Below, piece by piece: positions 1,600-16,627 of a DNA stretch of 18,370 nt. Source of the stretch: an uncultured archaeon. GTDB lineage: Archaea; Asgardarchaeota; Lokiarchaeia; Sigyniarchaeales; SOKP01. The notes under the pieces are model-generated. The model did no database searches. It was not told where the DNA came from and saw only the letters and a program-made list of their open reading frames with translations. Made by a program: the position numbers and the translations under genes. The stretch covers positions 57,710 to 76,079 of the forward strand of contig CAZBPC010000007.1 of assembly GCA_964493715.1 (NCBI GenBank), in the 5' to 3' direction. The stretch's first letter is position 1, and each line of letters begins with the position of its first letter.

Positions 1600-1634
1600 A
1601 ATCGCTAATGGTTAATAATTATTAAATTTAAATC

Positions 1635-1643
1635 TTTTTTTTT
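1635..1643 (+). terminator. Candidate archaeal oligo-T terminator
   Basis: T9 run about 35 nt after the stop of the upstream CDS. Confidence 0.4.
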
Positions 1644-1893
1644 ATATTTAAAAACGAGCTTAAATGTTCTTTCTCGCAATTTAATTAGTTAAATTATAAA
1701 AATTTTTTCTGTTCTTTTCATTAAAATTATCATAATAAATTATTTAATCATTAAAATTTAATTTGTAAACCCCATAATTTTTAATCCTTTTTCTACTATT
1801 TTCCATAATAAATCAGCATTTTTTTTTCAATATGAATTAAAATTGCTTATTTGATAATAAAATTGTTAAGAATCGCTAATATCGGCTAATGCG

Positions 1894-1917
1894 ATAAATA
1901 TATAAATATAAATATAT
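1894..1917 (+). promoter_or_regulatory. Candidate TATA-box region for the hdr cluster
   Basis: ATAAATATATAAATATAAATATAT upstream of the hdrA start at 2075. The region is very AT-rich, so specificity is low. Confidence 0.25.
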
Positions 1918-2020
1918 TCAAAGTTAAAATAAAATAAAGTCAATTATAAAAACGTAAGGTATTTCGTAATCGAAAGTTATAAGAATAGGATATAGCTCAA
2001 GAATTTAAAGAGTAAATACT

Positions 2021-2035
2021 AAGTCTATTAGACTT
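2021..2035. repeat. Perfect inverted repeat AAGTCTA-T-TAGACTT, possible operator
   Basis: 7-bp arms are exact reverse complements with a 1-nt centre, 40 nt upstream of the hdrA ATG. Confidence 0.45.
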
Positions 2036-2074
2036 TACAAAATTGTAGAAATAAGAGGTGGATGAATAAGAAAG

Positions 2075-4045
2075 ATGCTGTCTGATAATCAGACCATAAA
2101 TAAAAAAAAAGAGAGTACGAAAAAAATTGGGTATTACGCATGTCAATGAGGTATTAATATCAAAGGGAAAATTAATTGCAATAAACTGGTAGAATACGCT
2201 AAAGGACTTGATGGAGTAGTCATATCGAAGACGCACGCTTTTCTTTGAACCGAAAGTGGGCAAAATGAAATAATTGAAGACATCAAGGCAAAGAAATTAG
2301 ATCGAGTAGTTGCTTCAGCTTGAACTCCAAGAACTCACGAGCCAATTTATCGAGGATCAATATCGGAAACAGAAATGAGTCCTTATTATTTTCAGATGGT
2401 AAACGTGCGAGAACATTGCAGCTGGTGTACTGAAAGTAGTGAAGAAGCTCTTGAGAAAGCAAAAATTCTCGTGAGAAGTGGAATCGAACGCGCAAGGGGA
2501 TTAGAAATAGTTCCTATTAAAACCGTTTCCGTCGAAAAAGCGACATTAGTGATTGGTGGTGGAATTGCTGGAATGAATGCAGCATTAGATCTCGCTAATC
2601 AAGGAATTAAAGTCTACTTGGTTGAAGAGAAAACCACGATTGGAGGAAGGATGGCCCAGCTTGATCGAACATTTCCTACAGATGATTGTAGTATCTGAAT
2701 CTGTGGACCCATAATGTTGGAAGTAAATCGAAACAAAAATATTGAAGTCTTGAGCTTCAGTGAAGTAAAAAGCGTTAATGGTTATGTCGGGAATTATGAA
2801 ATCATAGTTGAGAAAAAACCTCGATTTATAGATACTGAAAAATGTAATGGGTGTGGTGCTTGCACTGAAAATTGCCCCACTTATACGACGAACTTTTTTG
2901 ATGAATTCTTAGGAGCAAGAAAAACAATTGATATCGCATTTGGACAGGCAGTACCATTTTTATATGATATACATCGTGAAACTTGCGTGGAATGTTTTGC
3001 CTGTGTGGAAGCTTGTGAGTTAGACGCTATAGATTTTAGCCAATTAGCCGAAGATATCACTTTTAAAGTAGGTACAATAATAATTGCGACAGGATGGGAT
3101 ATTTATGAACCATTTGGTGAATATGGTTATGGTGAATATGAAAATGTTATCACCCAAGCTCAACTCGAACGAATGCTTGCTCCAAATGGACCTTTAGAAG
3201 GTCACGTGCGAAGAATTTCTGATAATAAAAAACCACAAGAAATAGTGTTTATTCAATGCGTAGGAAGCAGAGAAACTGAACGAACGTATTGTTCGGGAGT
3301 ATGTTGCATGTTAGCCCTTAAAAACGGCAAGCTTCTCAAGGAAGAATTTCCAGATTCGAATATAACCATCTGTTATATAGACATTCGTACGAACGAAAAA
3401 GGTTTTGAAGAATATTACCAACGTGCGAAGAATTCTGATATCAGAATGATTCGAGGAAAAGTAGGAGAAATAACTGAAAATCCCGAAACTAAGGATGTGA
3501 AAGTGCGCGTTTATTCTTCATTAACTGATGAAATCATTAATATAAATGCAGATTTAGTAGTTCTATCAACAGCAGCATTACCAAGTAAAGGAACGAATAA
3601 AATCGCTAAGTTGCTGAATTTAGACCTCGATAGAAATGGTTTTCTTACGGAAAGCCATTTTGGTCTATCACCGCAGGAGACAAAAACAAAAGGGATTTTC
3701 ATTGCAGGATTTGCCCAAGGTCCAAAGGATATAGCCTATTCAGTTTCACAAGCTCGAGCAGCAGCAAGTAAGGTTGCGGAATTAACATCTGCAGGTGAAA
3801 TTGATTTGGAACTAATTGTAGCTGAAGTTGATAAAGAATTTTGCATATCCTGTGGGCGCTGTGAAAAAGAATGTCCAAAAGGAGCAATTAGAATCATTGA
3901 ATCTGAAGGAGCTGTTGTAGATGAGATAAATTGCGACGGTTGTGGAATTTGCGCGACTTGTTGTCCGACACAAGCAATTGATATTCGATATTTCCGAGAT
4001 GATCAATTAATAGCTGAAATTAATGGAATGTTAGAAGGTGGTTAA
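2075..4045 (+). CDS. hdrA: Selenocysteine-containing heterodisulfide reductase subunit A (656 aa; Sec at U25, U58, U83, U208)
   Basis: ATG 2075 is in frame with track ORFs 2375 and 2714. In-frame TGAs at 2147, 2246, 2321 and 2696 give IGYYACQUGINI, HAFLUTESGQ, VVASAUTPRTHEP and TDDCSIUICGP. These match IGVLICHCGINI, NLYSCSSDSQ, FIVASCTPRTHEA and TNDCSLCILAP in the paralogue at 8491. Also present: GGGIAG FAD motif, inserted 2x[4Fe-4S] ferredoxin, QCVGSR...YCSGVCC, GPKDI and a C-terminal ferredoxin. Stop is TAA. Confidence 0.93.
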
Positions 4046-4050
4046 ACGAG

Positions 4051-4494
4051 ATGGAATATAAGTATAATATAATAATGTTTGCTTGCCTAAAATGAGGCTA
4101 TGGAGCTGCTGATTTAGCTGGTGTTTCCCGAATGAAATACACTCCCGCAATAAAGATTATTAAAGTAAGGTGTACTGGAAGAGTGGATGCTAAATATATC
4201 CTTCATTCCATAAAACAAGGCGCTGATGGCGTGATGGTCGTAGGTTGAAGACCAGATGAGTGTCAATATAAGGTCGGGAATTTTACGGCTCAAAGGCATG
4301 TCGATTTTGCTAATCACATCTTAGAAAAAAGAGGTTTTGGTAACCAAAGAGTTAACATGTACTGGTTAAGTAGTGCTGAATCAGAGAAGTTAGTTAAAAG
4401 TGTTGAAGACGCTTTTGAAAAAATCCAACGTTTAGGTCCCAATCCGATAAGTACTCAGGGTTTAGAAAAAAAAGAAGTTGCAACAACCCCATAG
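4051..4494 (+). CDS. mvhD: Selenocysteine-containing MvhD/VhuD-type [2Fe-2S] subunit (147 aa; Sec at U15, U66); absent from the ORF track
   Basis: [46 protein letters not shown]...GADGVMVVGURPDECQY...NMYWLSSAE...LGPNP. TGAs at 4093 and 4246 align with CNWC and TGC of the Cys paralogue at 11598. AGGTGG SD-like motif at 4036-4041. Stop is TAG 4492-4494. Confidence 0.93.
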
Positions 4495-4552
4495 AATGAC
4501 TCCTATAAAAAAATTCTAGTTATAGGATGACTATCCTAGCAAGGATGGGGTT
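4485..4552 (+). promoter_or_regulatory. Eukaryote-like (Lokiarchaeia-type) SECIS element
   Basis: AUGAC (4496-4500), perfect 8-bp stem TCCTATAA (4501-4508)/TTATAGGA (4520-4527), 11-nt loop AAAAATTCTAG, then UGAC (4528-4531). This gives the UGAN/NGAN tandem G.A core. Possible basal helix AACCCCAT (4485-4492)/ATGGGGTT (4545-4552). Lies directly after two multi-UGA genes. Confidence 0.85.
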
Positions 4553-4601
4553 TAGTATTGTTTAATTTGTTTAATTTAAATAAAAAAAGATTTGAAAAAA
4601 T

Positions 4602-6110
4602 ATGGTATCAATAGAAAAGAACAGCATGTTTAGTAATATCCCTCTAGAAGATTTGATGGATGCAACCTATCTTGCTTCCACGAATTTTCAAGTCAGAGCA
4701 TTTTTTGAAGCAAAAAATGAAATTTTGAAGACAGGAAAATATTCAGAAAAAGAATTTTATGAAATTTTAGATGCTCTGGTTGATGCGGAAACCGAAAGAA
4801 AAATTGTTCTCGAAAGACTTCAAGGAAAATATCCGTTATTCCTATCAGAAATAGCAGGTGAAATCACGTTATTTCCCCCCGAAAATGTAATTCGTGATGT
4901 AATCTACTTGAAAGAACAAGGTTATGTAGAGGAACACGTTGAAATAAAGACCAAAATGGTCACGAAAAAGATAAAAGGTGAAGAGAAACAAGTTGAAGTC
5001 AAGGAATATTTTTACCGTTATCAAGCAAAAAAACTTCCCGATGATTTTATGGAAATTCATTTTAAACCTGTATCAATTGTATTTGATGCAGGAGTTTGCT
5101 GTCAATGTGGATGGTGCTCTTCTATATGCCCTGTAAATGCAATTACGGTAGATGCGGATAATTTAGAAATAGATGATGAATCTTGTATGAAATGTGGATT
5201 ATGTTTTAGTGTTTGTCCTCGTTCTTTTTCTATTGACCAAGCTAATGAAGCAATCAAGAAATTAGATAAAGAATTGAAATGGTCAGATAATATTGGAGCT
5301 TATTTCAACTCTTATTCGGGAAGTACTAAAAATGAAGATATAATGAAAGTAAGACAAGATGGAGGCGTAGTAACCACAATCGCCGAATATCTGTTAAAGA
5401 ATAAATTAGTAGACGCAGTAATTGCAGTACAACATTCAAAAGAGCTATGGAAACCTGAACCCGTCATTATCGATACCTTGAAAGATTTATATAAAACGGG
5501 AGGTACAAAATATGCGAATTCTCCATCTTTAAAAATAATAGATCAAGCTAAAAAGTATGATCGGGTGGCTTTTGTCGGAGTTCCTTGCATGATGAAAGCT
5601 CTGGAAAAAGGAACACTATTTCCATGTGGTTTACCCTTTTTTAAAAATATTAAATACAAGATCGGTCTTTTTTGCATGGAATCGTTTCCATACGATGGAA
5701 TTGTAAGGCTAGCAAAAGAGAAATTCAATAAAGACGTTAATGAATTGACAAAAATGAACATCGGGGGAGGTAAATTCATCATTAAAGTAAAATCTGGAGA
5801 ACAGTTAGATGTTCCACTAAATGATGTCAAGAGTTATGCTCGTCATAGTTGTCACTTTTGTGAAGACTTGACCTCGGATTATGCTGACATTTCTGTAGGA
5901 TCGATTGGGTCGCAAGATGGATGGTCTTCTGTAATAACGAGATCGAAAGATGCAGATAAATTATATAATGAAATTGTTAAAGCAGGATTAATTGAATCAC
6001 AGAGTTTGAAAGATGTAAAGCCCGGACAATTTTTAGTTGAGCGAATTGGCGGAACGAAAAGAAAAAATTGTAAACCAATAAATTTGAAAGAGAATCAAGA
6101 TGACCACTAA
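4602..6110 (+). CDS. FrhB/FdhB-family (F420-interacting flavoprotein) with a 2x[4Fe-4S] ferredoxin and an N-terminal ~150-aa helical/winged-helix-like extension
   Basis: CCQCGWCSSICP and CMKCGLCFSVCP ferredoxin motifs. FrhB motifs RQDGGVVT, VAFVGVPC, IGLFCMESF and CHFCEDLTSDYADISVGSIGS. Confidence 0.88.
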   Translation: MVSIEKNSMFSNIPLEDLMDATYLASTNFQVRAFFEAKNEILKTGKYSEKEFYEILDALVDAETERKIVLERLQGKYPLFLSEIAGEITLFPPENVIRDVIYLKEQGYVEEHVEIKTKMVTKKIKGEEKQVEVKEYFYRYQAKKLPDDFMEIHFKPVSIVFDAGVCCQCGWCSSICPVNAITVDADNLEIDDESCMKCGLCFSVCPRSFSIDQANEAIKKLDKELKWSDNIGAYFNSYSGSTKNEDIMKVRQDGGVVTTIAEYLLKNKLVDAVIAVQHSKELWKPEPVIIDTLKDLYKTGGTKYANSPSLKIIDQAKKYDRVAFVGVPCMMKALEKGTLFPCGLPFFKNIKYKIGLFCMESFPYDGIVRLAKEKFNKDVNELTKMNIGGGKFIIKVKSGEQLDVPLNDVKSYARHSCHFCEDLTSDYADISVGSIGSQDGWSSVITRSKDADKLYNEIVKAGLIESQSLKDVKPGQFLVERIGGTKRKNCKPINLKENQDDH

Positions 6111-7212
6111 ATCATTTCAAGATTTAATTAAGGAAGTACATGAGAAAGGAATTTGTCAAGAATGTGGAGGCTGTGTAAGCTTTTGTAGCTCAGCAGAATT
6201 TAACATTATTGGATTTAAGGACCAATATTCTCCTCCAGTATATATTAATAAGGATAAATGCTTGGAATGTGGAATATGTTATTATATTTGTCCTCAAACC
6301 CATATTATAGATGATGAACTTAACAAAACGTATAATTTTTCAGATTACGCGTCAATGCCTTTAGGAAATTTCGAAAACATTTATTCTTGTCAAGCTACCG
6401 ATAAAGAGTTCTTGGACTATGGAACTGATGGTGGCGTGGTAAATTCAATCATTAATTTCTTAATTGAAAAAAAAATGATAGATGGTGCCGTCGTCTCCAA
6501 AACTGAAGCTCCATTTTCAAGAGAAGCAACTTTTGCCGATAGTAAGTATGATTTATTAAAAGCTTCGGGAGTAAAGTTAAATATTACCCCTCAACTGGAT
6601 GAAATTCAAAAGTTTTGTACTTACACTCATTCAATTCCAAAATTGAACCATTATAAATTTAAAAAATTAGCAGTGGTAGGGACACCGTGTCAGCTATATA
6701 CTATTGCTTGCATGAAAGATTTGGGCGTTACACCTTCCCAGAATGTTGAAGTTTGTCTAGGATTATTTTGTTATGAAAATTTCTTCTTCGAAAAATCACA
6801 AATTGAAAAGTTCGAAAAGGATTTTAACATTAAATTTAGCGAAATTAAAAAGATAAATATCAAGGAAGATGTCATATTTACACTAAAAGATTTAGGGCCT
6901 GGTGAGAAGAATATTCACGTCCCTTTTAATCATTTAAAAGATTATATGCGTGCTGCTTGTAATGCGTGCGCTGATTTTACAAACATATATTCTGACATTT
7001 CGTTTGGAGGATTAGGGTCTCCAGAAAAATATACGACCGTTATTCCTCGAACTGAAAAAGGAAAGGACTTATTTAAAAAAGTCCTTAACGCCGGCGTAAT
7101 TAAACAAAGAGATCTTAGCGACGAGAAAAAGAGAGAGATGGTGAATCTCATCACTCAATTTTCTAAGTCAAAAGTTAACCGAAAGGAACAATTCATGAAA
7201 AATTTATCTTAG
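6100..7212 (+). CDS. Second FrhB/FdhB-family protein with N-terminal ferredoxin
   Basis: CQECGGCVSFC and CLECGICYYICP. FrhB motifs GTDGGVV, AVVGTPCQ, GLFCYENF and CNACADFTNIYSDISFGGLGS. Overlaps the upstream gene by 11 nt. Confidence 0.88.
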   Translation: MTTKSFQDLIKEVHEKGICQECGGCVSFCSSAEFNIIGFKDQYSPPVYINKDKCLECGICYYICPQTHIIDDELNKTYNFSDYASMPLGNFENIYSCQATDKEFLDYGTDGGVVNSIINFLIEKKMIDGAVVSKTEAPFSREATFADSKYDLLKASGVKLNITPQLDEIQKFCTYTHSIPKLNHYKFKKLAVVGTPCQLYTIACMKDLGVTPSQNVEVCLGLFCYENFFFEKSQIEKFEKDFNIKFSEIKKINIKEDVIFTLKDLGPGEKNIHVPFNHLKDYMRAACNACADFTNIYSDISFGGLGSPEKYTTVIPRTEKGKDLFKKVLNAGVIKQRDLSDEKKREMVNLITQFSKSKVNRKEQFMKNLS

Positions 7213-7225
7213 AGAGGAGAAAACA

Positions 7226-8491
7226 ATAATAGAGTCAAAAAGGGACACAGAACGGAAAAAATTATTTGATGATACCTTAAAATATCTTGGTAAGATTTAT
7301 GATCCAAACTTAAGGGAACTTTTAAAAAAGTGTTATCAATGTGGTCGTTGTTCAGGTGTTTGTCAATTAAGTAAAGTGCAAAAATATACTCCGAGTAAAA
7401 TAATTCAACTTATTTTAGAAGGTTTTGAAGATAAAGTTCTTGATAGTGGTGATTTATGGGATTGTTTAACATGCAATCAATGTCTTAAAGACTGTCCCGA
7501 AGATATTAATTTTGCAGACATTGTCAGAACAGCAAGGTATTTAATGCGACATAGGGACCAATCTGTCGATGAGTATGTTGCTCATAAAGGAATATATACA
7601 ACTCTTTCTGAAATAATGAGTAGACCTTATATAAATCCCGAAAGAAACATGGAGTGGGTCCCAAAAGGTTGTAAAATCTCAGACAAAGGAAACATATTAT
7701 ATTATGTAGGGTGTTTGCCCTTTTTTAACTATGAATTTGAAGGTTTAGATACAATTGCTAAAAGTACCTTGCAAATTATGTGCAAAGTTGAAAATGAGCC
7801 TATAGTTGTTTTATCCGAAGAGACTTGTTGCGGACACGATATCTATTGGGGGCAAGGTAAATTAAAAACGTTTATCAAGCTAGCAAAAAAGAATATAGAC
7901 AAATTTGAAAAAACAGGAATTTCAAAGATTGTGACTGCCTGTGCGGAATGCTATAGAACATTTAAGATTGATTATGCTCAATTATTTGAGGAGTTTGAGT
8001 CGAAATTTGAAGTTAAACATCTCATCGAATATATTTACGATAATTGGAAGGAAGGAACCATTGAATTTGTAAAACCCAATAAATCCGAAGAAATCACGCC
8101 TTTTACTTACCATGATCCATGTAGGTTGAGTAGATTTTTATCCAAGGAGAACGACATTACAGGGATGACTCGGGAAATTTTCAAGGAATTCGAAAAATTA
8201 GGTTATAAATTTAATGAAATGAAGCATAACAAGGAAAACTCATTATGTTGTGGAGTCAATTCCTGGATGAATTGCAATGAAAAATCAAAAGCATTAAGAT
8301 ATACGCGAATGTTAGAGGCAAAAGAAGCTGGAACGATAATGGTTACATCTTGTCCTAAGTGTAACATTCATTTGAGCTGTCTTCAAAATGATTTCGAAGA
8401 TATAGCCTCTATTGAGATATTAGATTTTTCCGAATTTTTAGTTAATCACATTAAAGTTAATAAACCAAGGAAGAAGGAGGAGTCTAAGTAA
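7226..8491 (+). CDS. HdrD-like Fe-S oxidoreductase (HdrC-type 2x[4Fe-4S] domain plus two CCG domains); probable non-canonical ATA start at 7226 or 7229
   Basis: In-frame CYQCGRCSGVC (7331-7363) lies upstream of the track start 7376 and pairs with LWDCLTCNQCLKDCP. CCG domains: YYVGC...CCG...TACAEC and YHDPC...CCG...TSCPKC. GAGGAG at 7214-7219. Stop TAA overlaps the next ATG (TAATG). The exact start is uncertain. Confidence 0.82.
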   Translation: MIESKRDTERKKLFDDTLKYLGKIYDPNLRELLKKCYQCGRCSGVCQLSKVQKYTPSKIIQLILEGFEDKVLDSGDLWDCLTCNQCLKDCPEDINFADIVRTARYLMRHRDQSVDEYVAHKGIYTTLSEIMSRPYINPERNMEWVPKGCKISDKGNILYYVGCLPFFNYEFEGLDTIAKSTLQIMCKVENEPIVVLSEETCCGHDIYWGQGKLKTFIKLAKKNIDKFEKTGISKIVTACAECYRTFKIDYAQLFEEFESKFEVKHLIEYIYDNWKEGTIEFVKPNKSEEITPFTYHDPCRLSRFLSKENDITGMTREIFKEFEKLGYKFNEMKHNKENSLCCGVNSWMNCNEKSKALRYTRMLEAKEAGTIMVTSCPKCNIHLSCLQNDFEDIASIEILDFSEFLVNHIKVNKPRKKEESK

Positions 8492-11400
8492 TGCAAGGAA
8501 GCGTATTAGTAATAGGTGGAGGCATAGCCGGCATCCAAACTAGCCTTGATCTCACAGAATTAGGATTTAAAGTCTATCTCGTTGAGAGGAATCCTTCTAT
8601 TGGAGGTAGAATGGCACAACTTGATAAAACCTTCCCTACAAATGACTGTTCATTATGTATATTGGCTCCCAAGATGGTTGAAGTGTTTAGAAACCCGAAT
8701 ATCGAGCTAATGACGTATCATGAGCTAAAAGCAGTATCTGGGACTCCAGGCGATTTTATAGCAACTATTATTAAGAAACCTCGGTATATTGATGAAACAA
8801 GATGCAAAGGTTGTGGAGATTGTGCTGCGAAATGTCCTAAGATCCAAGTTCCCAATCTCTTTGACATGAATTTAGGAAAAAGAAAGTCTGCTTATATACC
8901 ATTTCCTCAAGCAGTCCCTCCAATTTATCTCATTGATCCTGAAATATGCCTAAAATTAACTAAAGGCGTATGTGGGGTATGTGCTAAGGTATGCCAAGCT
9001 GAGGCAATTAATTTTGAACAAGTAGAACAAGAGATAAAGATAAATGTGGGAGCAATTGTGGTTGCTACGGGATTTGATATGCCTGCTGAAAAATTATCTT
9101 CAAGGTGGGGATATAGATTTGAGAATGTTGTAAGTGCTTTGGAATATGAAAGAATATTATGTGCTTCAGGACCCTTTGGTGGTCACGTGTTAAGACCGGG
9201 TGATCATGAAGAACCTGAAAAAATCGCATTCATTCAGTGCGCAGGTTCAAGAGATCTACACGAAGGAATCCGATATTGTTCTAGCGTGTGTTGCATGTAT
9301 ACCGCTAAAGAAGCCATCATCACTGCAGAACATTCAGAAAAATCAAAATGCTTTGTTTTCAGGCATGACATTCGTGCTTTTGGGAAGAATTTTTATGAAT
9401 TCACGCAAAGAGCACAAAAGGAATATGGTGTAAAATATATTCAGACTAAAATCAGCAAGATAGAAGAAAATCCTGAAACGAAGAATTTGACAATTCACTA
9501 TGAAAATTTAAAAACGGGAGAATTTGATGATTTTGAAGCTAATTTAGTGGTTTTAGCCACTCCATTGGTTCATTCATCCGGAAGTCAAGAGTTATCGGAA
9601 ATATTAGGAATTGAAGTAGATGAGTATAATTTTTTTAGAGAGTTAGATTATTATAACAAATCAAAATCAACAAAAGAAGGGATCTATTTATGTGGTTTTT
9701 GTCAAGGTCCAATGGACATCCCAGAGACCGTTGCAGATTCGAGTGGAGTAGCTGGACAAGTTGCAACTTACTTAAATTCAGTAAAGTTTGAACAAATTAA
9801 AGAAAAGGATATAGAAATCCCCGAATTGGGAATTAAAGATGATGATGAACCGAGAATAGGCGTGTTGATATGTCATTGTGGAATTAATATTGGTAAATAC
9901 GTACACGTTCCTTTATTGGCTGAATACGTGCGAGCTTTACCAAATGTAATTCAATGTGAAGACAATCTTTACTCTTGTTCATCAGATAGCCAAGCAAGAA
10001 TTAAAGAACTCATTATCAATAACAAATTAAATAGATTTATTGTGGCTTCTTGTACCCCAAGAACTCATGAAGCATTATTTCAAGAGACTTGTGTGGAAGC
10101 AGGTTTGAATAAATACTTGTTTGAAATGGTCAACATTCGAGACCAATGTTCCTGGGTTCACATGGACGATGCGGAAGCAGCGACACAAAAAGCTAAAGAT
10201 TTGATAAGAATGGCAGTTGCTAAAGCACGATTATTAAAGCCCCTGAAAGAAGAATTGTTAAAAATCACCCCTACAGCATTAATCATTGGTGGTGGAATCG
10301 CAGGAATGACTGCTGCCTTAAATACAGCCAATCAAGGGTTTAAAACATTCATAGTTGAAAAGGAAACCGTTCTTGGGGGAAATTTAAATTACTTAAACGA
10401 GCTGTACCCATTCGAACAAGATGCTTCGGATTTCCTTAATCGAACCATAGATACAATCGAGAAGAATGAGAACATTCAAACGTTCTTGAATGCTAAAATA
10501 AAGAAAGTCAAGGGATACGTGGGAAACTATGTTGTCTCAGTAGAGGAATCTAATGGAAATGTCCAAGAATTAAGCATTGGAACAATCATCGTTGCCACGG
10601 GAGGCAAAGAATATAAACCCAAAGATCTCTTTCAATACAAAAAGGAGAATAAGAATGTTATAACTCAACTAGAGTTAGAGCAATTATTAAAAGAAAAAGG
10701 GAAATCGTGGCTTGATGATATCAACCGTATCACTACAATTTTATGCGTAAATGCAAGACAAAATGAAGGAATAACCTATTGCTCTAATATATGCTGTGGT
10801 AATTCAATCAAGAATATAGGACTTCTAAAGAAGCTTAAACCGGAACTTGAATTGATTGTCCTTTATAGAGATCTACAAATGGCAAAGAAAAGATATGAAG
10901 ATTATTACCGAGAACGTAGAAAGGATGCAATGTTTTTGCGATATGATTTGGACAACTTGCCGATTGTAAAAAGAAAGAGTAAATCTCCTGAAAAATATGG
11001 AATAAAATATTATGATACGAACTTGCAAGACTTTTTAGAATTTGAAACAGATTTGATCGTATTGTCGACTCCAATGGTTCCATCAGACAATTTGATGGAT
11101 TTAGCTAAAATGTTAAAGGTACCGTTGGATAAAAATGGATTTTTCCTCGAGGCTCATGTTAAATTAAGACCACTCGATTTTGCTACCGAAGGAATATTTC
11201 TATGCGGCTGCGCTCAATGGCCAAAAAATGTCCAAGATACAATATCCCAAGCAAATGGTGCTGCAGGAAGAGCCAGTAGATTTTTAAGTGCTAAAGAAAT
11301 TACCACTTCGGGCATTGTTGCAGAAGTAAATCCAATAAATTGTATAGGTTGCGGAAAATGTGCTAGTGTTTGTGCTTATAATGCCATTGATATTTTAGAT

Positions 11401-11577
11401 TCAATAAAGGAATATGAAGATGTAAGCCTTTTAGTGAAAAAATCGTTCATAAATTCTGCGTTATGCAAGGGATGCGGTACATGTGCAGCGACTTGCCCAA
11501 ACGGAGCGATCTCTATAAAACAATATGATTTTGATCAAATATCTGCAATGATTGAGTCATTTTTATTAGAAACATAA
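8491..11577 (+). CDS. hdrA: Long HdrA-family protein (1028 aa) with two FAD modules and an internally placed HdrA N-terminal-type Fe-S domain; Cys-only
   Basis: GGGIAG at the N-terminus, TNDCSLC, inserted ferredoxin and QCAGSR...CSSVCC. Then RIGVLICHCG...ASCTPRTHE...RDQCSWVH, a second GGGIAG, CSNICC, EAHVKLRP and a C-terminal ferredoxin. AGGAGG at 8475-8480. Confidence 0.92.
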   Translation: MQGSVLVIGGGIAGIQTSLDLTELGFKVYLVERNPSIGGRMAQLDKTFPTNDCSLCILAPKMVEVFRNPNIELMTYHELKAVSGTPGDFIATIIKKPRYIDETRCKGCGDCAAKCPKIQVPNLFDMNLGKRKSAYIPFPQAVPPIYLIDPEICLKLTKGVCGVCAKVCQAEAINFEQVEQEIKINVGAIVVATGFDMPAEKLSSRWGYRFENVVSALEYERILCASGPFGGHVLRPGDHEEPEKIAFIQCAGSRDLHEGIRYCSSVCCMYTAKEAIITAEHSEKSKCFVFRHDIRAFGKNFYEFTQRAQKEYGVKYIQTKISKIEENPETKNLTIHYENLKTGEFDDFEANLVVLATPLVHSSGSQELSEILGIEVDEYNFFRELDYYNKSKSTKEGIYLCGFCQGPMDIPETVADSSGVAGQVATYLNSVKFEQIKEKDIEIPELGIKDDDEPRIGVLICHCGINIGKYVHVPLLAEYVRALPNVIQCEDNLYSCSSDSQARIKELIINNKLNRFIVASCTPRTHEALFQETCVEAGLNKYLFEMVNIRDQCSWVHMDDAEAATQKAKDLIRMAVAKARLLKPLKEELLKITPTALIIGGGIAGMTAALNTANQGFKTFIVEKETVLGGNLNYLNELYPFEQDASDFLNRTIDTIEKNENIQTFLNAKIKKVKGYVGNYVVSVEESNGNVQELSIGTIIVATGGKEYKPKDLFQYKKENKNVITQLELEQLLKEKGKSWLDDINRITTILCVNARQNEGITYCSNICCGNSIKNIGLLKKLKPELELIVLYRDLQMAKKRYEDYYRERRKDAMFLRYDLDNLPIVKRKSKSPEKYGIKYYDTNLQDFLEFETDLIVLSTPMVPSDNLMDLAKMLKVPLDKNGFFLEAHVKLRPLDFATEGIFLCGCAQWPKNVQDTISQANGAAGRASRFLSAKEITTSGIVAEVNPINCIGCGKCASVCAYNAIDILDSIKEYEDVSLLVKKSFINSALCKGCGTCAATCPNGAISIKQYDFDQISAMIESFLLET

Positions 11578-11597: not shown

Positions 11598-12035
11598 ATG
11601 TCAAAAACTAAATCGAAAGAGAAGTTTCCTGATTTTAACCCAGAAATCTTAGCATTTTGCTGTAATTGGTGTTCTTATGCAGGTGCAGATCTAGCTGGTG
11701 TATCTCGCTTTCAATATCCTCCTAATATTCGAATTGTTAGGGTAATGTGCTCTGGTCGAGTTGATCCTTCTTTTGTTATAAAAGCATTAAAAGACGGAGC
11801 CGATGGGGTTTTAATTACGGGTTGTCACATCGGAGATTGCCACTACATCACTGGAAACGAATATGCTAAGGAAAGGTTTGAAAGGTTGCATGAAATTTTA
11901 ATCAAGCAACTTGGGATAAATCAAAAAAGAGTAAGGTTGGAATGGATAAGTGCTTCGGAAGGAAAGCGGTTCGCAGAGGTAATTACAGAATTCACAAATG
12001 AAATTAAAGAATTAGGACCTCTAAAAGTTCTTTAA
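11598..12035 (+). CDS. mvhD: MvhD-type [2Fe-2S] subunit, Cys-only paralogue
   Basis: [51 protein letters not shown]. Confidence 0.95.
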
Positions 12036-12345: not shown

Positions 12346-12415
12346 TTCCATTCTTTTTAGCTACAACTCAATCATTTGATAAAACTTAAATTTAAATAAA
12401 GATTGTTTGGGGATT

Positions 12416-13573
12416 ATGAATAGTCAAGAGAGAGTTTGGGCAGTACTAAACCAAGAACCAACTGATCGAGTTCCAATTCATATAATTACTTTAGATGGGA
12501 AAATATGCGATGAGGTATTAGGAAAACCTGCTCGAACCACATTCGACACTATTGACGAATTAGAGAACCAATATCCTGACGATTGGGTTGAAAGAATTAA
12601 CGGAATACTCACTAATATAGAGATTTCTATATTTTCAAGATCCTTAGAAGCTGCTGCACAGCTTGGATTTGATACAGTTGGGGCGGGATATATTCCTTTT
12701 ATATTCGAGAACAAAAATGATATGTCTGATATTTTTGGGAGAAAATACCAAATCATTAACACCCATGGACATATTATGCCTTATTATATGGATGGTCTAA
12801 TTAAAAACCGTGAAGATTGGGAAAATTTTCCTAAACCCGATTTCTCAAAGATATTTATGGAAGCAAAAAAGCTTTATAAAACTGTACTGAGGAGAAAAAA
12901 AAAATGTGCGAATCCTAATATGTGCATTATGGCTCAAGATGACTATGTATCTGTGTTTCCACCTGTATGGCAGTCAATGGGTATGAATGCATTCGTTAGA
13001 AATTTAAAAAAGGATCCTAAACTAATTGAAGAGATCTTAGATTTTAGTACTGAAATAGTTATAGGGCTATTCAAGACTTATTCTGAACTTGGAGCTAAAG
13101 TATTTTTTGAAGCTAGTGATTTAGCGTTTAGATCCGGACCTCTGCTTAATCCAAAATATATAAATGAATATGTATTACCTTGCATGAAAAGAGTTACTGA
13201 TGAAATCCACAAGTTAGGGGGGAAAATAATTTTTCATTCTGATGGAGATATCACCTGTCTTCTCGATTTTATCGTATCTTCTGGTTTTGATGCTGTTCAT
13301 TGCTTAGAACCTCCTTATGTTAAGCTAGATCCCCTTAAAAAAAAATATGGCGAAAAATTAAGTTTCCTTGGAAATATTGATACTTCACATGTTTTAGTCA
13401 GTGGGACAAAGAGAGAAGTTGAAGATGCGGTGAAATTCGCTATTAAAAACTTAGGACAAGACGGAGGGCTAATAATTTCTCCTACTAATACCCACCCTGC
13501 AATGAATTTAAAGCAAATAGTTTGGATGATTGAAGCTACAAAAAAATATGGTATTTACCCAAGTAAGCTCTAA
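12416..13573 (+). CDS. Uroporphyrinogen decarboxylase-family protein (UroD/MtaA-CmuA methyltransferase-like TIM barrel)
   Basis: Typical N-terminus MNSQERVWAVLNQEPTDRVP (ATG 12416 preferred over TTG 12407). Motifs SDLAFRSGPLLNP, IIFHSDG, HCLEPP, LSFLGNID and GGLIISPTN. Confidence 0.85.
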   Translation: MNSQERVWAVLNQEPTDRVPIHIITLDGKICDEVLGKPARTTFDTIDELENQYPDDWVERINGILTNIEISIFSRSLEAAAQLGFDTVGAGYIPFIFENKNDMSDIFGRKYQIINTHGHIMPYYMDGLIKNREDWENFPKPDFSKIFMEAKKLYKTVLRRKKKCANPNMCIMAQDDYVSVFPPVWQSMGMNAFVRNLKKDPKLIEEILDFSTEIVIGLFKTYSELGAKVFFEASDLAFRSGPLLNPKYINEYVLPCMKRVTDEIHKLGGKIIFHSDGDITCLLDFIVSSGFDAVHCLEPPYVKLDPLKKKYGEKLSFLGNIDTSHVLVSGTKREVEDAVKFAIKNLGQDGGLIISPTNTHPAMNLKQIVWMIEATKKYGIYPSKL

Positions 13574-13777: not shown

Positions 13778-13876
13778 ATCGCTTATCCTTATTTTTAGAA
13801 TAACATAAAATAACTTAACTGATTTGTAAGGAATCAGTCTATTTTTTAATGAAATTAATTGGGGTATTTTATAATA

Positions 13877-16627
13877 ATGGAAGGTTCTGTTTTAGTAATA
13901 GGCGCTGGCATAGCAGGAATCCAATCTTCACTGGATCTAACTGAACTTGGCTTTAAGGTTTATCTTATCGAAAAAGAAGCTTATATTGGAGGACATATGG
14001 CTCAATTCGACAAATTATTTCCTGCTAACGACTGTAGTTTATGCGTGCTCGCTCCAAAGATGGTTGCGGTGTATAGAAATCCTAATATTTCTCTCTATAC
14101 ATTATCTGAAGTTAAAAAAGTATCTGGGAAAGCTGGAAACTTTAAAATTAGTATCCAGAAGAGTCCTCGATACGTAGATGAAAGCCGATGTAAAGGATGT
14201 GGAGATTGTGCTGCAAAATGTCCTAGAGTGGAAGCCCCGAATCTCTTTGACATGAATTTAGGAAAAAGAAAATCCATTTACATCCCTTTCCCACAAGCAA
14301 CTCCTCCTGTGTATCTTATAGACCCGGAGATTTGTCTTTATCTCAATAGGAATGTGTGTCGGGTATGTGAAAAAGTTTGCCAGGCTGGAGCAATAGATTT
14401 TGGTCAGAAACCAGAGGATATAGAGTTTAATGTTGGTGCAATTGTAATTGCGACCGGGTATGAAATGCTAAGCGAAGAATTAGCTTCGAAATGGGGATAT
14501 CAATACAAAAATGTCGTGAATGCTTTAGAATATGAAAGAATTCTTAGCCCTACTGGACCATTTGGAACCCAAATTTTAAGACCCAGTGATGAAAAAGAAC
14601 CAAAAAGTATCGCATTTATCCAATGTGCTGGATCCAGTTATTTAAATGATAATGTTCCCTATTGCTCTCGAGCTTGTTGCATGTATACAACGAAGGATGC
14701 AGTTTTGACGAAACAATATTCTCAAGACATTCAGATTTCTATATTTAGGCATAATATCAGAGTATTTGGCAAAAATTTTTATGAGTATACCAAGGAAGCT
14801 CAAGTTGATTATGGTATAAACTACTTCAATTCTAACATTAATTCTATTGAAGAAGAACCAGAAACTCATGATATTATCATTAATTTTGATGATTTAAGAA
14901 AGGATGAATATGGAAAGAATTATAGGGCAAATTTAGTAGTTCTCGCAGCTCCATTAGTACCTTCTCGTGGATCTAGAGATTTGGCTGATATTATAGATGT
15001 TAGGCTAGATAATTTTGGATTTTTTCAAGAATCTTCTTATTTTGACAAGTTACTATCGACTAAAGAGGGGGTATATTTATGTGGGTTCTGTCAAGGTCCA
15101 ATGGTCATTTCAGAGACAGTTGCAAATGCGAGTGGAGTTGCATCTCAAATATCTACGTTTTTGAATTCTGCTAGATACACGCAAGTAGTTGACAAAGAAA
15201 TTGAGACCAAATCTGAAGAAGAAATAATAAGGATTGTTCCTCGAACATTAATAATTGGCGGTGGCATATCTGGAATAACAGCAGCGTTAAATATAAGTAA
15301 TCAGGGATTTGAGACAATTCTAGTTGAAAAAAAAGATAAATTGGGTGGAAATTTGAATCATCTCAACTTGATCTATCCGACTCAAATAAAAGCATCAAAT
15401 TTCTTAGAGGATAAGTTAAACCAATTATCTAACAAAGAAAATGTTAAAGTCTTTCTCAATTCTTATATAGAGGAGTTGGAAGGGTCAATAGGAAATTACC
15501 ATGTAAAAATTGCCAATCAAGAAAATAAATATAATTTTGAAGTAGGTACTATTATTGTAGCAACTGGAAGTAAAGAATTTAAACCTCAGGGTCTTTTTCA
15601 ATATAATGAGAGAAATAGAAACGTTTTAACACAATTAGAATTAGAAGAGCGATTAAAACGAGGGGATAAAGATTGGCTTAAAAATATTGAACATATCACC
15701 ACAATAATGTGTGTGAATGCCCGACAAAAGGGTGGATTTTCCTATTGTTCTAATATATGTTGTAGTAATACTATTAAAAACATTAGCATATTAAAAAAAT
15801 TGAAACCACAATTAAAAGTTGTTGTTCTGTTTAGAGAATTACATATGGCTAAAAAGGAATTTGAAGAATACGTAAGCAAGAGAAAAAAAATTGCTGAGTA
15901 TTTAAAATATGATTTAGAAAATCTACCACATCTAACTAAGATTAATGATAGTCCAGAGAGATATGAGATAAACGTTCAAAACATCGTGGATCAAAAGGAA
16001 ACGATTAGGTTTGAAACCGATCTCGTTATATTGTCCACGCCAATGATCCCTCCCGAAGATGTGCACGATCTTGCTGAAAAAATAAAAGTCCCCATCGATG
16101 AAAATGGATTTTTCATAGAAGCTCATAAAAAACTCAGACCCTTGGATTTGACAACTTATGGGATTTTCATTTGTGGGTGTGCTCAATGGCCTAAAAATGT
16201 TCAGGATTCCATTTTAGAAGCTAATGCAGCAGCTGGGAGAGCAAGTAGATTTTTAAGCATTAAAGAAATATCGACTACCAAATTAGAGATGTTGTCAGTT
16301 TTCCTCTCTATAGAATGTTTTTTCAAGGATATGAAAGTAAATATTGAAAGATGTAATGGTTGTGGTCAATGTGCTGAAGTTTGTCAATTTAAAGCGATTA
16401 CGCTCGAGGATTTAAAACAAGAATACGAAGATGTGAGTATTTCCACGAAAAAAGCACATATTAATCCCGCTTTATGTAAAGGGTGCGGTAAATGTTCAGC
16501 AACATGTCGCTTAAAAGCAATAGAACCCCTCCATTATGATTTTAAGCAACTAACCTCTATAGTTGAACCATACTTTCTTGATAAAAGCAAGAGGAAAGAA
16601 ACCGAAGAATACATGTATGCTGAATAG
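13877..16627 (+). CDS. hdrA: Third HdrA-family protein (916 aa), close paralogue of the 8491 gene lacking the central Fe-S domain
   Basis: MEGSVLVIGAGIAG matches MQGSVLVIGGGIAG, so ATG 13877 is preferred. Contains ANDCSLC, a ferredoxin insert, CSRACC, GGGISG, CSNICC and a C-terminal ferredoxin. A 32-nt block is identical at 8854-8885 and 14240-14271. Confidence 0.9.
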   Translation: MEGSVLVIGAGIAGIQSSLDLTELGFKVYLIEKEAYIGGHMAQFDKLFPANDCSLCVLAPKMVAVYRNPNISLYTLSEVKKVSGKAGNFKISIQKSPRYVDESRCKGCGDCAAKCPRVEAPNLFDMNLGKRKSIYIPFPQATPPVYLIDPEICLYLNRNVCRVCEKVCQAGAIDFGQKPEDIEFNVGAIVIATGYEMLSEELASKWGYQYKNVVNALEYERILSPTGPFGTQILRPSDEKEPKSIAFIQCAGSSYLNDNVPYCSRACCMYTTKDAVLTKQYSQDIQISIFRHNIRVFGKNFYEYTKEAQVDYGINYFNSNINSIEEEPETHDIIINFDDLRKDEYGKNYRANLVVLAAPLVPSRGSRDLADIIDVRLDNFGFFQESSYFDKLLSTKEGVYLCGFCQGPMVISETVANASGVASQISTFLNSARYTQVVDKEIETKSEEEIIRIVPRTLIIGGGISGITAALNISNQGFETILVEKKDKLGGNLNHLNLIYPTQIKASNFLEDKLNQLSNKENVKVFLNSYIEELEGSIGNYHVKIANQENKYNFEVGTIIVATGSKEFKPQGLFQYNERNRNVLTQLELEERLKRGDKDWLKNIEHITTIMCVNARQKGGFSYCSNICCSNTIKNISILKKLKPQLKVVVLFRELHMAKKEFEEYVSKRKKIAEYLKYDLENLPHLTKINDSPERYEINVQNIVDQKETIRFETDLVILSTPMIPPEDVHDLAEKIKVPIDENGFFIEAHKKLRPLDLTTYGIFICGCAQWPKNVQDSILEANAAAGRASRFLSIKEISTTKLEMLSVFLSIECFFKDMKVNIERCNGCGQCAEVCQFKAITLEDLKQEYEDVSISTKKAHINPALCKGCGKCSATCRLKAIEPLHYDFKQLTSIVEPYFLDKSKRKETEEYMYAE

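Follow-up and report, generated by a model that had tools for sequence, protein, structure and literature searches.

The window analyzed here is a stretch of 18,370 nucleotides (nt) from an uncultured Lokiarchaeia archaeon (order Sigyniarchaeales, SOKP01; GenBank assembly GCA_964493715.1, contig CAZBPC010000007.1, positions 57,710 to 76,079 of the forward strand), whose plus strand carries an hdrA gene (2075..4045) followed by vhuD and a selenocysteine insertion sequence (SECIS). Read with TGA as selenocysteine (Sec, U), hdrA translates into 656 residues with one terminal TAA, the frame being open throughout its 656 codons except for exactly four TGA codons, each of them in a column otherwise occupied by Cys. 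These are U25 (2147..2149), located in a C-x-U motif that follows strand beta1 in the N-terminal domain, U58 (2246..2248), U83 (2321..2323), which starts the invariant xTPRTHEP motif, and U208 (2696..2698), the canonical site within the motif C205-S-I-U208, matching Cys197 of the solved HdrA 5odc_A and Sec197 of Methanococcus maripaludis. A sequence-only reading of this DNA had claimed an otherwise intact full-length hdrA with four in-frame TGAs, and the translation reproduces their number as well as the individual codons. It had also predicted that standard pipelines would call two fragments or a pseudogene; translation table 11 indeed breaks the gene into open reading frames (ORFs) at 2375-2698 (107 aa) and 2714-4045 (443 aa).

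The assignment as hdrA is based on translation, domain and similarity searches. Phmmer matches to the solved HdrA structures 9sfi_A (E 5.5e-199), 5odc_A (5.7e-194), 8rvu_a (7.5e-188) and 7bkb_A (4e-161) each span residues ~15-654 (15-654 in the case of 9sfi_A). All four Sec residues stand opposite Cys in 5odc_A and 8rvu_a, with U208 opposite Cys197 of the former and opposite the modelled Sec (X) of M. maripaludis in 9sfi_A. Matches to Pyr_redox_2, FAD_oxidored and NAD_binding_8 at residues 157-202 mark the FAD-binding Rossmann/thioredoxin-reductase-type (TrxR) domain. Cys/Sec sets for six [4Fe-4S] clusters are present, namely the N-domain set 23/25/58/83, the TrxR-domain motif, which we take to be C395, C406, C410 and C411, and four CxxCxxCxx(x)C motifs (2+2) in the ferredoxin part. 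The protein would comprise an N-terminal [4Fe-4S] domain and an FAD/thioredoxin-reductase domain, along with ferredoxin domains that are in part inserted and in part C-terminal. Judged from its sequence, it is very probably a genuine Sec-decoded full-length HdrA of standard architecture.

Only 5 nt past the hdrA stop begins vhuD/mvhD (4051..4494, plus strand), encoding 147 aa with two Sec codons (4093-4095, U15; 4246-4248, U66) and ending in TAG; both this two-Sec gene and the SECIS just downstream had been overlooked in the sequence-only reading. The product matches the VhuD chain 9sfi_K (E 5.5e-37, FlpD domain), with U15 and U66 opposite both Sec (X) residues of M. maripaludis VhuD. The SECIS (4496..4530, plus strand) starts 1 nt past the vhuD TAG and is assigned to the Loki type by its AUGA...GA core and 11-nt A-rich apical loop. 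It is composed, in order, of AUGA-C, the 5' arm UCCUAUAA of an 8-bp stem, the apical loop AAAAAUUCUAG, the 3' arm UUAUAGGA and U-GA, and a longer stem is predicted around it, in which about 4485-4492 pairs with 4545-4552. The element is found in the same place in 29 of 30 orthologous loci, with both-sided changes at four of the eight stem pairs; under the fixed 8/11 geometry no match was obtained in locus L050. A strain variant in run X4 carries A>G at window position 4522 in the 3' stem arm, turning U-A into U-G with pairing preserved. The strict lokiSECIS pattern has six matches in the 3.68-Mb genome. Three lie behind HdrA-VhuD or VhuU genes (the window's gene pair, a second HdrA-VhuD pair on contig C59 and a VhuU-like gene on C12), two behind small unannotated ORFs with in-frame TGA on C4 and C14, and one on C8 without a clear ORF. 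Relaxed matching also reveals a SECIS-like element, along with a VhuD, downstream of the other two Sec-HdrA genes in the genome (C39, C74). On this model, hdrA and vhuD would be two selenoprotein genes, most likely on one mRNA, whose six UGA codons (four plus two, over 2.1 kb) would be decoded as Sec via the single Loki-type SECIS after vhuD.

To assess the conservation of the four TGA codons, 152 genomes from this order were compared; an HdrA homologue at E<=1e-100 is present in 151. Among 93 matches with at least 75% identity (the window's own excluded, counted by hand), 61 carry four TGA, 26 three, 5 five and one, which is N-terminally cut, two; four TGA is thus the majority form of the orthologue in the order searched. 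Codons were compared in the 30 best orthologous loci (L022-L051), which stem from different species genomes and share 74-92% identity. All 30 have TGA at positions 25, 83 and 208 and a TAA or TAG stop of hdrA; at position 58, 16 have TGA and 14 a Cys codon. The alternation of TGA and Cys codons, suggested beforehand as a check on Sec decoding, is therefore seen at position 58, the other three sites being TGA throughout. Within the same genome, where the hdrA described here lies on C7, the paralogues on C59, C39 and C74 have Cys at 58 and 83, and those on C96, C117 and C38 have Cys at all four sites. Public entries P0003-P0018 are full-length orthologues in which TGA was translated as Trp (W at 25, 83 and 208, sometimes at 58); these translations would mislead alignments.

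Comparison of Sec patterns separates a fixed pair from optional sites. In Sec-HdrA, Sec at 25 and 208 always occurs together (30 orthologues, three same-genome paralogues and 20 loci of relatives), and the three all-Cys paralogues have Cys at both positions. This both-Sec-or-both-Cys rule covers all Asgard HdrA compared (own genome and L022-L071); in the methanococcal enzyme (9sfi_A), Sec is confined to the equivalent of 208. Positions 58 and 83 are optional, Sec being found at 58 alone in L057 and L060 and, of these two sites, at 83 alone in L059, L066 and L067. Further TGA codons occur in relatives, in the five-TGA HdrAs and in the four-TGA pair L066/L067 (65-66% identity): at position 310 (CVECFSU) in L061, L062 and L064, at 307 (CVEU) in L065-L067 and at 623 (CDGU) in L063. 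These extra TGA fall within CxxCxxCxxxC motifs, in both inserted and C-terminal ferredoxin domains; in the HdrA family, Sec therefore replaces textbook [4Fe-4S] ligands.

The genome encodes the Sec machinery that had been named as a further check, comprising tRNA-Sec, SepSecS, PSTK, two SelD and an EFSec candidate. The tRNA-Sec scores 59 bits, above the Rfam cut-off, and is called SeC with anticodon TCA by ARAGORN; SepSecS (476 bits) lies directly beside it. PSTK (E 1.9e-49) falls below the curated cut-off and is nonetheless the top-matching family. The EFSec candidate (484 aa, ~3 kb from tRNA-Sec) matches selB best (233.8 bits vs 129 for EF-Tu), likewise below the curated cut-off. The two SelD genes contain one TGA each. 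As to their arrangement, tRNA-Sec directly upstream of SepSecS and the EFSec candidate ~3 kb off form a cluster at C26:11835-17262, and the two Sec-containing selD genes stand in tandem on C18. Taking these data together, we hold with high confidence that the UGA codons of hdrA and vhuD are read as Sec.

Several observations weigh against this assignment. The evidence for Sec in hdrA is at the level of sequence. In the NCBIfam comparison the hdrA product stays below both cut-offs (HdrA2, 756.6 bits vs 1100; HdrA, 590.5 vs 1400), and the vhuD product reaches 162.8 bits with the VhuD model, below its cut-off of 215. The NCBIfam HdrA/HdrA2 models, of 762-777 positions, are tuned to methanogens and contain a fused MvhD portion, given that P0002 matches the last ~130 positions of each. 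An Rfam scan of 1600-4700 at E<=10 returned two chance matches only and no SECIS family. The pairing percentage of the SECIS stem is inflated and partly circular, as the aligned regions were picked by stem pattern, and with perfect stems and flexible geometry a match is obtained in only 22/30 loci. RNA-library contigs of X20 keep the TGAs at 2147 and 2321 unchanged, at a depth of about 2 that is no proof of transcription.

The N-terminal domain, where three of the four Sec residues reside, was analyzed by an alignment of homologues, using 46 of 50 matches; P0012 (truncated, 412 aa) and the near-duplicates P0040-P0042, an arbitrary choice, were left out. Cys is invariant at 23, 25, 58 and 83 in 31/31 distant HdrA-like proteins. 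Position 115 is C, D, N or V in 8, 4, 5 and 14 of them, respectively, and position 118 is V or I. Of the three solved HdrAs with alignments shown, 9sfi_A and 8rvu_a also have Asp at 115. The sequence-only reading had counted five conserved positions in this domain (C23, U25, U58, U83, C115); because C115 is variable, the invariant set is reduced to four. Its related claim of three Sec clustered on one Fe-S site holds in terms of position, three of the four invariant Cys of the domain being Sec; direct Fe ligation by each of them would go beyond this.

In order to locate these positions in three dimensions, residues 15-138 were modelled with AlphaFold2 (AF2; pLDDT 94.1). The underlying alignment dropped 7 of 51 loci by a motif regular expression and used 25 of the remaining 44, together with two stretches of the window itself, taken from the N-domain of the query and from the N-domain-like region of the 8491 paralogue. 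In Foldseek the model matches the N-domains of 5odc_A, 8rvu_A and 7bkb_A (TMq 0.91-0.95, rmsd 1.2-1.6 A). C23 is placed at the end of strand 1 and U25 just after it, U58 four residues past strand 2 and U83 directly past strand 3; in the predicted fold, C23, U25, U58 and U83 all lie along one edge of the Rossmann-like sheet. The idea that the HdrA N-domain is MvhD-like was not confirmed by sequence comparison (BLASTP E 0.45-0.8; hhalign probability 0.1% global, 1.2% local), and no MvhD chain is among the Foldseek matches listed for the model. A residue equivalence between VhuD and the N-domain is consequently not used here.

The N-domain carries the [4Fe-4S] cluster HA3/A3, the mobile shuttle cluster of the bifurcation cycle (PMC13518236, PMC13580544). 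According to Chadwick et al. 2022 (PMC9012536), summarising the Wagner 2017 crystal structure, this N-terminal cluster is bound by N-domain Cys and by Cys197 of the partner HdrA, the residue that corresponds to U208. In the open literature this general statement was the only one found on the HA3 ligands; the passages considered of PMC12350162, PMC6019823, PMC6037941, PMC8097209, PMC12054007 and bioRxiv 10.1101/2024.09.26.615249 give no exact ligands. Likewise, in the main-text passages covered, no printed claim of Fe-S ligation by Asgard HdrA Sec was found. Supposing that the ligands come from the four invariant Cys, selenium would make up at least three of four ligands in a set of three from the N-domain with U208 of the partner, and three of four in a set of four from the N-domain.

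In favour of selenium ligation stand the positional evidence of the invariant Cys and of the placement of the sites in the AF2 model, the statement of PMC9012536 on Cys197, the joint Sec or Cys state of positions 25 and 208, and the Sec within ferredoxin motifs of relatives. On this basis we see a roughly even chance that three of the four invariant Cys positions holding HA3 are those of U25, U58 and U83 and that partner U208 can approach or ligate the same cluster. If so, the surroundings of HA3 would be largely selenolate instead of thiolate, selenium would stand where bonds form and break as the mobile arm docks and undocks, and U25 and U208 may be an exchanging pair, by ligand swap or by a Se-Se/Se-S bond. 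The full proposal is that HA3 of a widespread Asgard HdrA is held by three to four selenolates (U58, U83, U25 and/or partner U208) as a natural Sec-ligated [4Fe-4S] cluster, with the ferredoxin-motif extension and a U25-U208 docking gate included; this we put forward tentatively, at somewhat less than an even chance.

Several points speak against selenium ligation of HA3. The invariant His88 could be an alternative HA3 ligand. Mariotti et al. 2016 (PMC4989117, represented here and below by part of its text) state that the HdrA Sec sites are not cluster ligands, in a paper that predates the structure. Recent cryo-EM work places Sec197 and Cys194 around an unassigned density between HA3 and FAD and suggests a selenosulfur bond (PMC13518236), and a Cys202/Cys205 pair is reported to bind an unknown ligand between HA3 and FAD (PMC13580544); both papers treat the question as open, and what they consider is a selenylsulfide relay, not ligation of the cluster. 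Accordingly, the Sec residues might be decoded without being Fe ligands, acting instead, next to cluster and flavin, as redox-active selenols that form a selenylsulfide or diselenide relay; Mariotti 2016 proposed such a role, and the cryo-EM papers discuss it for Sec197. The constant company of U25 and U208 also fits such a relay. In ferredoxin:thioredoxin reductase, a C-P-C motif provides one Cys as ligand and one as redox-active residue, and the C-x-U motif around U25 resembles it. We nevertheless regard a purely non-ligand role as rather unlikely. An N-domain with only four invariant Cys must keep its [4Fe-4S] cluster even when swung away from the partner, and, as a counting argument, at least two of its three Sec must ligate if the ligands are drawn from these four. 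Furthermore, relatives carry Sec at unambiguous ferredoxin ligand positions.

Both selenium ligation of HA3 and the relay take the UGA codons as decoded, and the two explanations that deny this have a negligible probability each. For hdrA being a pseudogene or an assembly or sequencing artefact, with the TGAs as true stops leaving fragments, only the table 11 outcome of a 107-aa and a 443-aa piece can be adduced; the same TGA codons recur in the 30/30 orthologous loci in a frame that is otherwise open, and SECIS and Sec machinery are present. Contigs of the DNA runs X3, X4 and X18 show only TGA at the hdrA TGA codons they cover, one of these runs representing a strain that differs at 18 other places of the stretch and another a different study and year; TGT or TGC in place of TGA, which the sequence-only reading had proposed to look for in reads, does not appear in contigs of these independent metagenome runs. 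A genome-wide reassignment of TGA, e.g., to Trp as assumed in the public entries with W at the Sec positions, conflicts with 300 of 1780 ORFs of at least 250 aa ending in TGA (median run-on to the next TAA/TAG, 9 codons), with the TGA stop of the gene at 1-1599 of the window, upstream of hdrA, with invariant Cys rather than Trp at these sites in homologues, and with a tRNA-Sec of anticodon TCA. Pseudogene, sequencing error and genome-wide reassignment are excluded for practical purposes.

Comparison with known systems places the locus within a described type. In the text of PMC4989117 considered, Loki HdrA carries up to four Sec at five possible positions, all aligning with conserved Cys, the HdrA-VhuD tandem is invariable with a very short spacer and a two-Sec VhuD, up to six UGA within some 2 kb are served by a single lokiSECIS downstream of VhuD, and hdrA ends in UAA/UAG as a rule. 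The window shares all of this: an HdrA of ~660 aa in which Sec, at four sites at most, never lacks the canonical one, a same-strand VhuD that follows immediately after a short gap (5 nt in the window), one SECIS after VhuD with the AUGA...GA core and 11-nt A-rich loop, and a TAA/TAG stop of hdrA. Nothing essential differs from the tandem as described there, the window locus being an orthologue from another genome; the SECIS stem is counted as 8 Watson-Crick bp in the window vs 9 bp in that paper. From the same text we infer that Mariotti's five positions are 25/58/83/208/629, the fifth being described as the last motif's Sec with an additional Cys behind it, a description that suits position 629 (C629-C630) in the window HdrA. 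Sites 307, 310 and 623 are unmentioned in these passages; Fig. 3 and Table S1 of PMC4989117 and Table S3 of PMC11227280 may list Sec positions. The latter, a 2024 ISME J survey, names, in the part considered, HdrA and FrhD/VhuD as the most numerous Asgard selenoproteins, always adjacent and sharing a SECIS. The four-Sec HdrA type is therefore already described in Lokiarchaeota since 2016 and the window gene adds nothing new as a gene; of the four-Sec HdrA announced by the sequence-only reading, Sec decoding, full length, machinery and TGA/Cys alternation stand, and any implied novelty falls.

The HdrA(Sec197)-VhuD of Methanococcales, known from the Hdr-Vhu-Fwd complex (9sfi; PMC13518236), shares the full-length architecture (E 5.5e-199), Sec at the matching CxxU site and VhuD Sec at both matching positions. 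In contrast, the methanococcal HdrA has a single Sec with Cys at the N-domain positions, each gene has its own archaeal-type SECIS (as cited in the considered text of PMC4989117), and the window has no adjacent hdrBC and frhB-like genes downstream instead. A more distant parallel is BamE/BamF of the Geobacter class II benzoyl-CoA reductase (bioRxiv 10.64898/2026.04.10.717634, in the portion considered), with an HdrA-type bifurcating module, an MvhD-type adaptor with Sec beside its cluster, and a CxxC pair that nears the N-domain-type cluster E3 in one state. This system is bacterial and differs in domain order, with Sec reported in BamF only; the argument made for the BamF Sec is similar to the cryo-EM discussion of Sec197.

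Downstream of the SECIS, the window continues with a frhB/fdhB-like gene (4602..6110, plus strand), a neighbour conserved in 30/30 orthologous loci (L022-L051), and a second frhB-like gene (6100-7212), the two such genes of the window spanning 4602-7212. The hdrA gene belongs to a conserved hdrA-vhuD-frhB-like cluster. The constant frhB/fdhB-like neighbour points to an HdrA-VhuD-FrhB-like module for electron input that is conserved and has no hdrBC next to it. Neither hdrB nor hdrC adjoins hdrA-vhuD; a CCG-domain HdrD/TfrB-like protein (7376-8491) lies past the two frhB-like genes. Further along lie a fused double HdrA (8491-11577, 1028 aa), an all-Cys MvhD (11598-12035), a URO-D-family protein (12407-13573) and an HdrA-like protein of 922 aa (13859-16627). 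The fused double HdrA has the Cys197-type CxxC (the site matching 208) in its first half only and an N-domain-like Cys set in mid-protein (residues ~449-590), behind which the second half lacks Cys197. This arrangement matches the complementary Cys197/N-domain pattern described for ANME fused HdrA by Chadwick et al. 2022 (PMC9012536). The earlier statement that all four Sec sites are Cys in this paralogue is true, but the sites are divided between the two halves.

Two of the other strict lokiSECIS matches accompany small ORFs. On C4 (about 10794, minus strand; L072:102-509), a 135-aa ORF has a pair of neighbouring in-frame TGA codons (..ITAHADUUADNF..) and a TGA as its own stop, with the element 9 nt behind it; no Pfam family scored above threshold for this ORF, the sole match being a chance-level one to Herpes_pp85 below cut-off (E 0.021). 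It may encode a selenoprotein that has not been described, or it could be a short gene followed by a long 3' stretch. On C14 (about 11303, plus strand; L073:303-497), the element lies 9 nt behind a 64-aa hydrophobic ORF with ..DDGGGUGCF.. (U-x-C) and no Pfam family, a candidate small membrane selenoprotein.

A multi-Sec HdrA-VhuD pair with a shared eukaryote-like SECIS has been a known hallmark of Lokiarchaeia since 2016. Its specialist interest may lie in re-reading the 2016 statement of non-ligand Sec sites (in the text of PMC4989117 considered) by structures available from 2017 on, as three of the Sec sites fall on invariant Cys of the HA3 domain, which has four of these, and the remaining one is the residue reported as a ligand from the partner subunit. 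If selenium ligation of HA3 is true, relatives would carry the same chemistry to classical ferredoxin-motif ligands at positions 307, 310 and 623, and U25 and U208 would always occur together because a Se-Se or ligand-swap contact gates the docking of the arm in electron bifurcation. According to the structural papers of 2026 (PMC13518236, PMC13580544, bioRxiv 10.64898/2026.04.10.717634), the path of electrons between HA3, the CxxC/U pair and FAD is still unresolved, and an enzyme with selenium at exactly the HA3-region sites would be a good spectroscopic handle on this path (Se EXAFS, 77Se).

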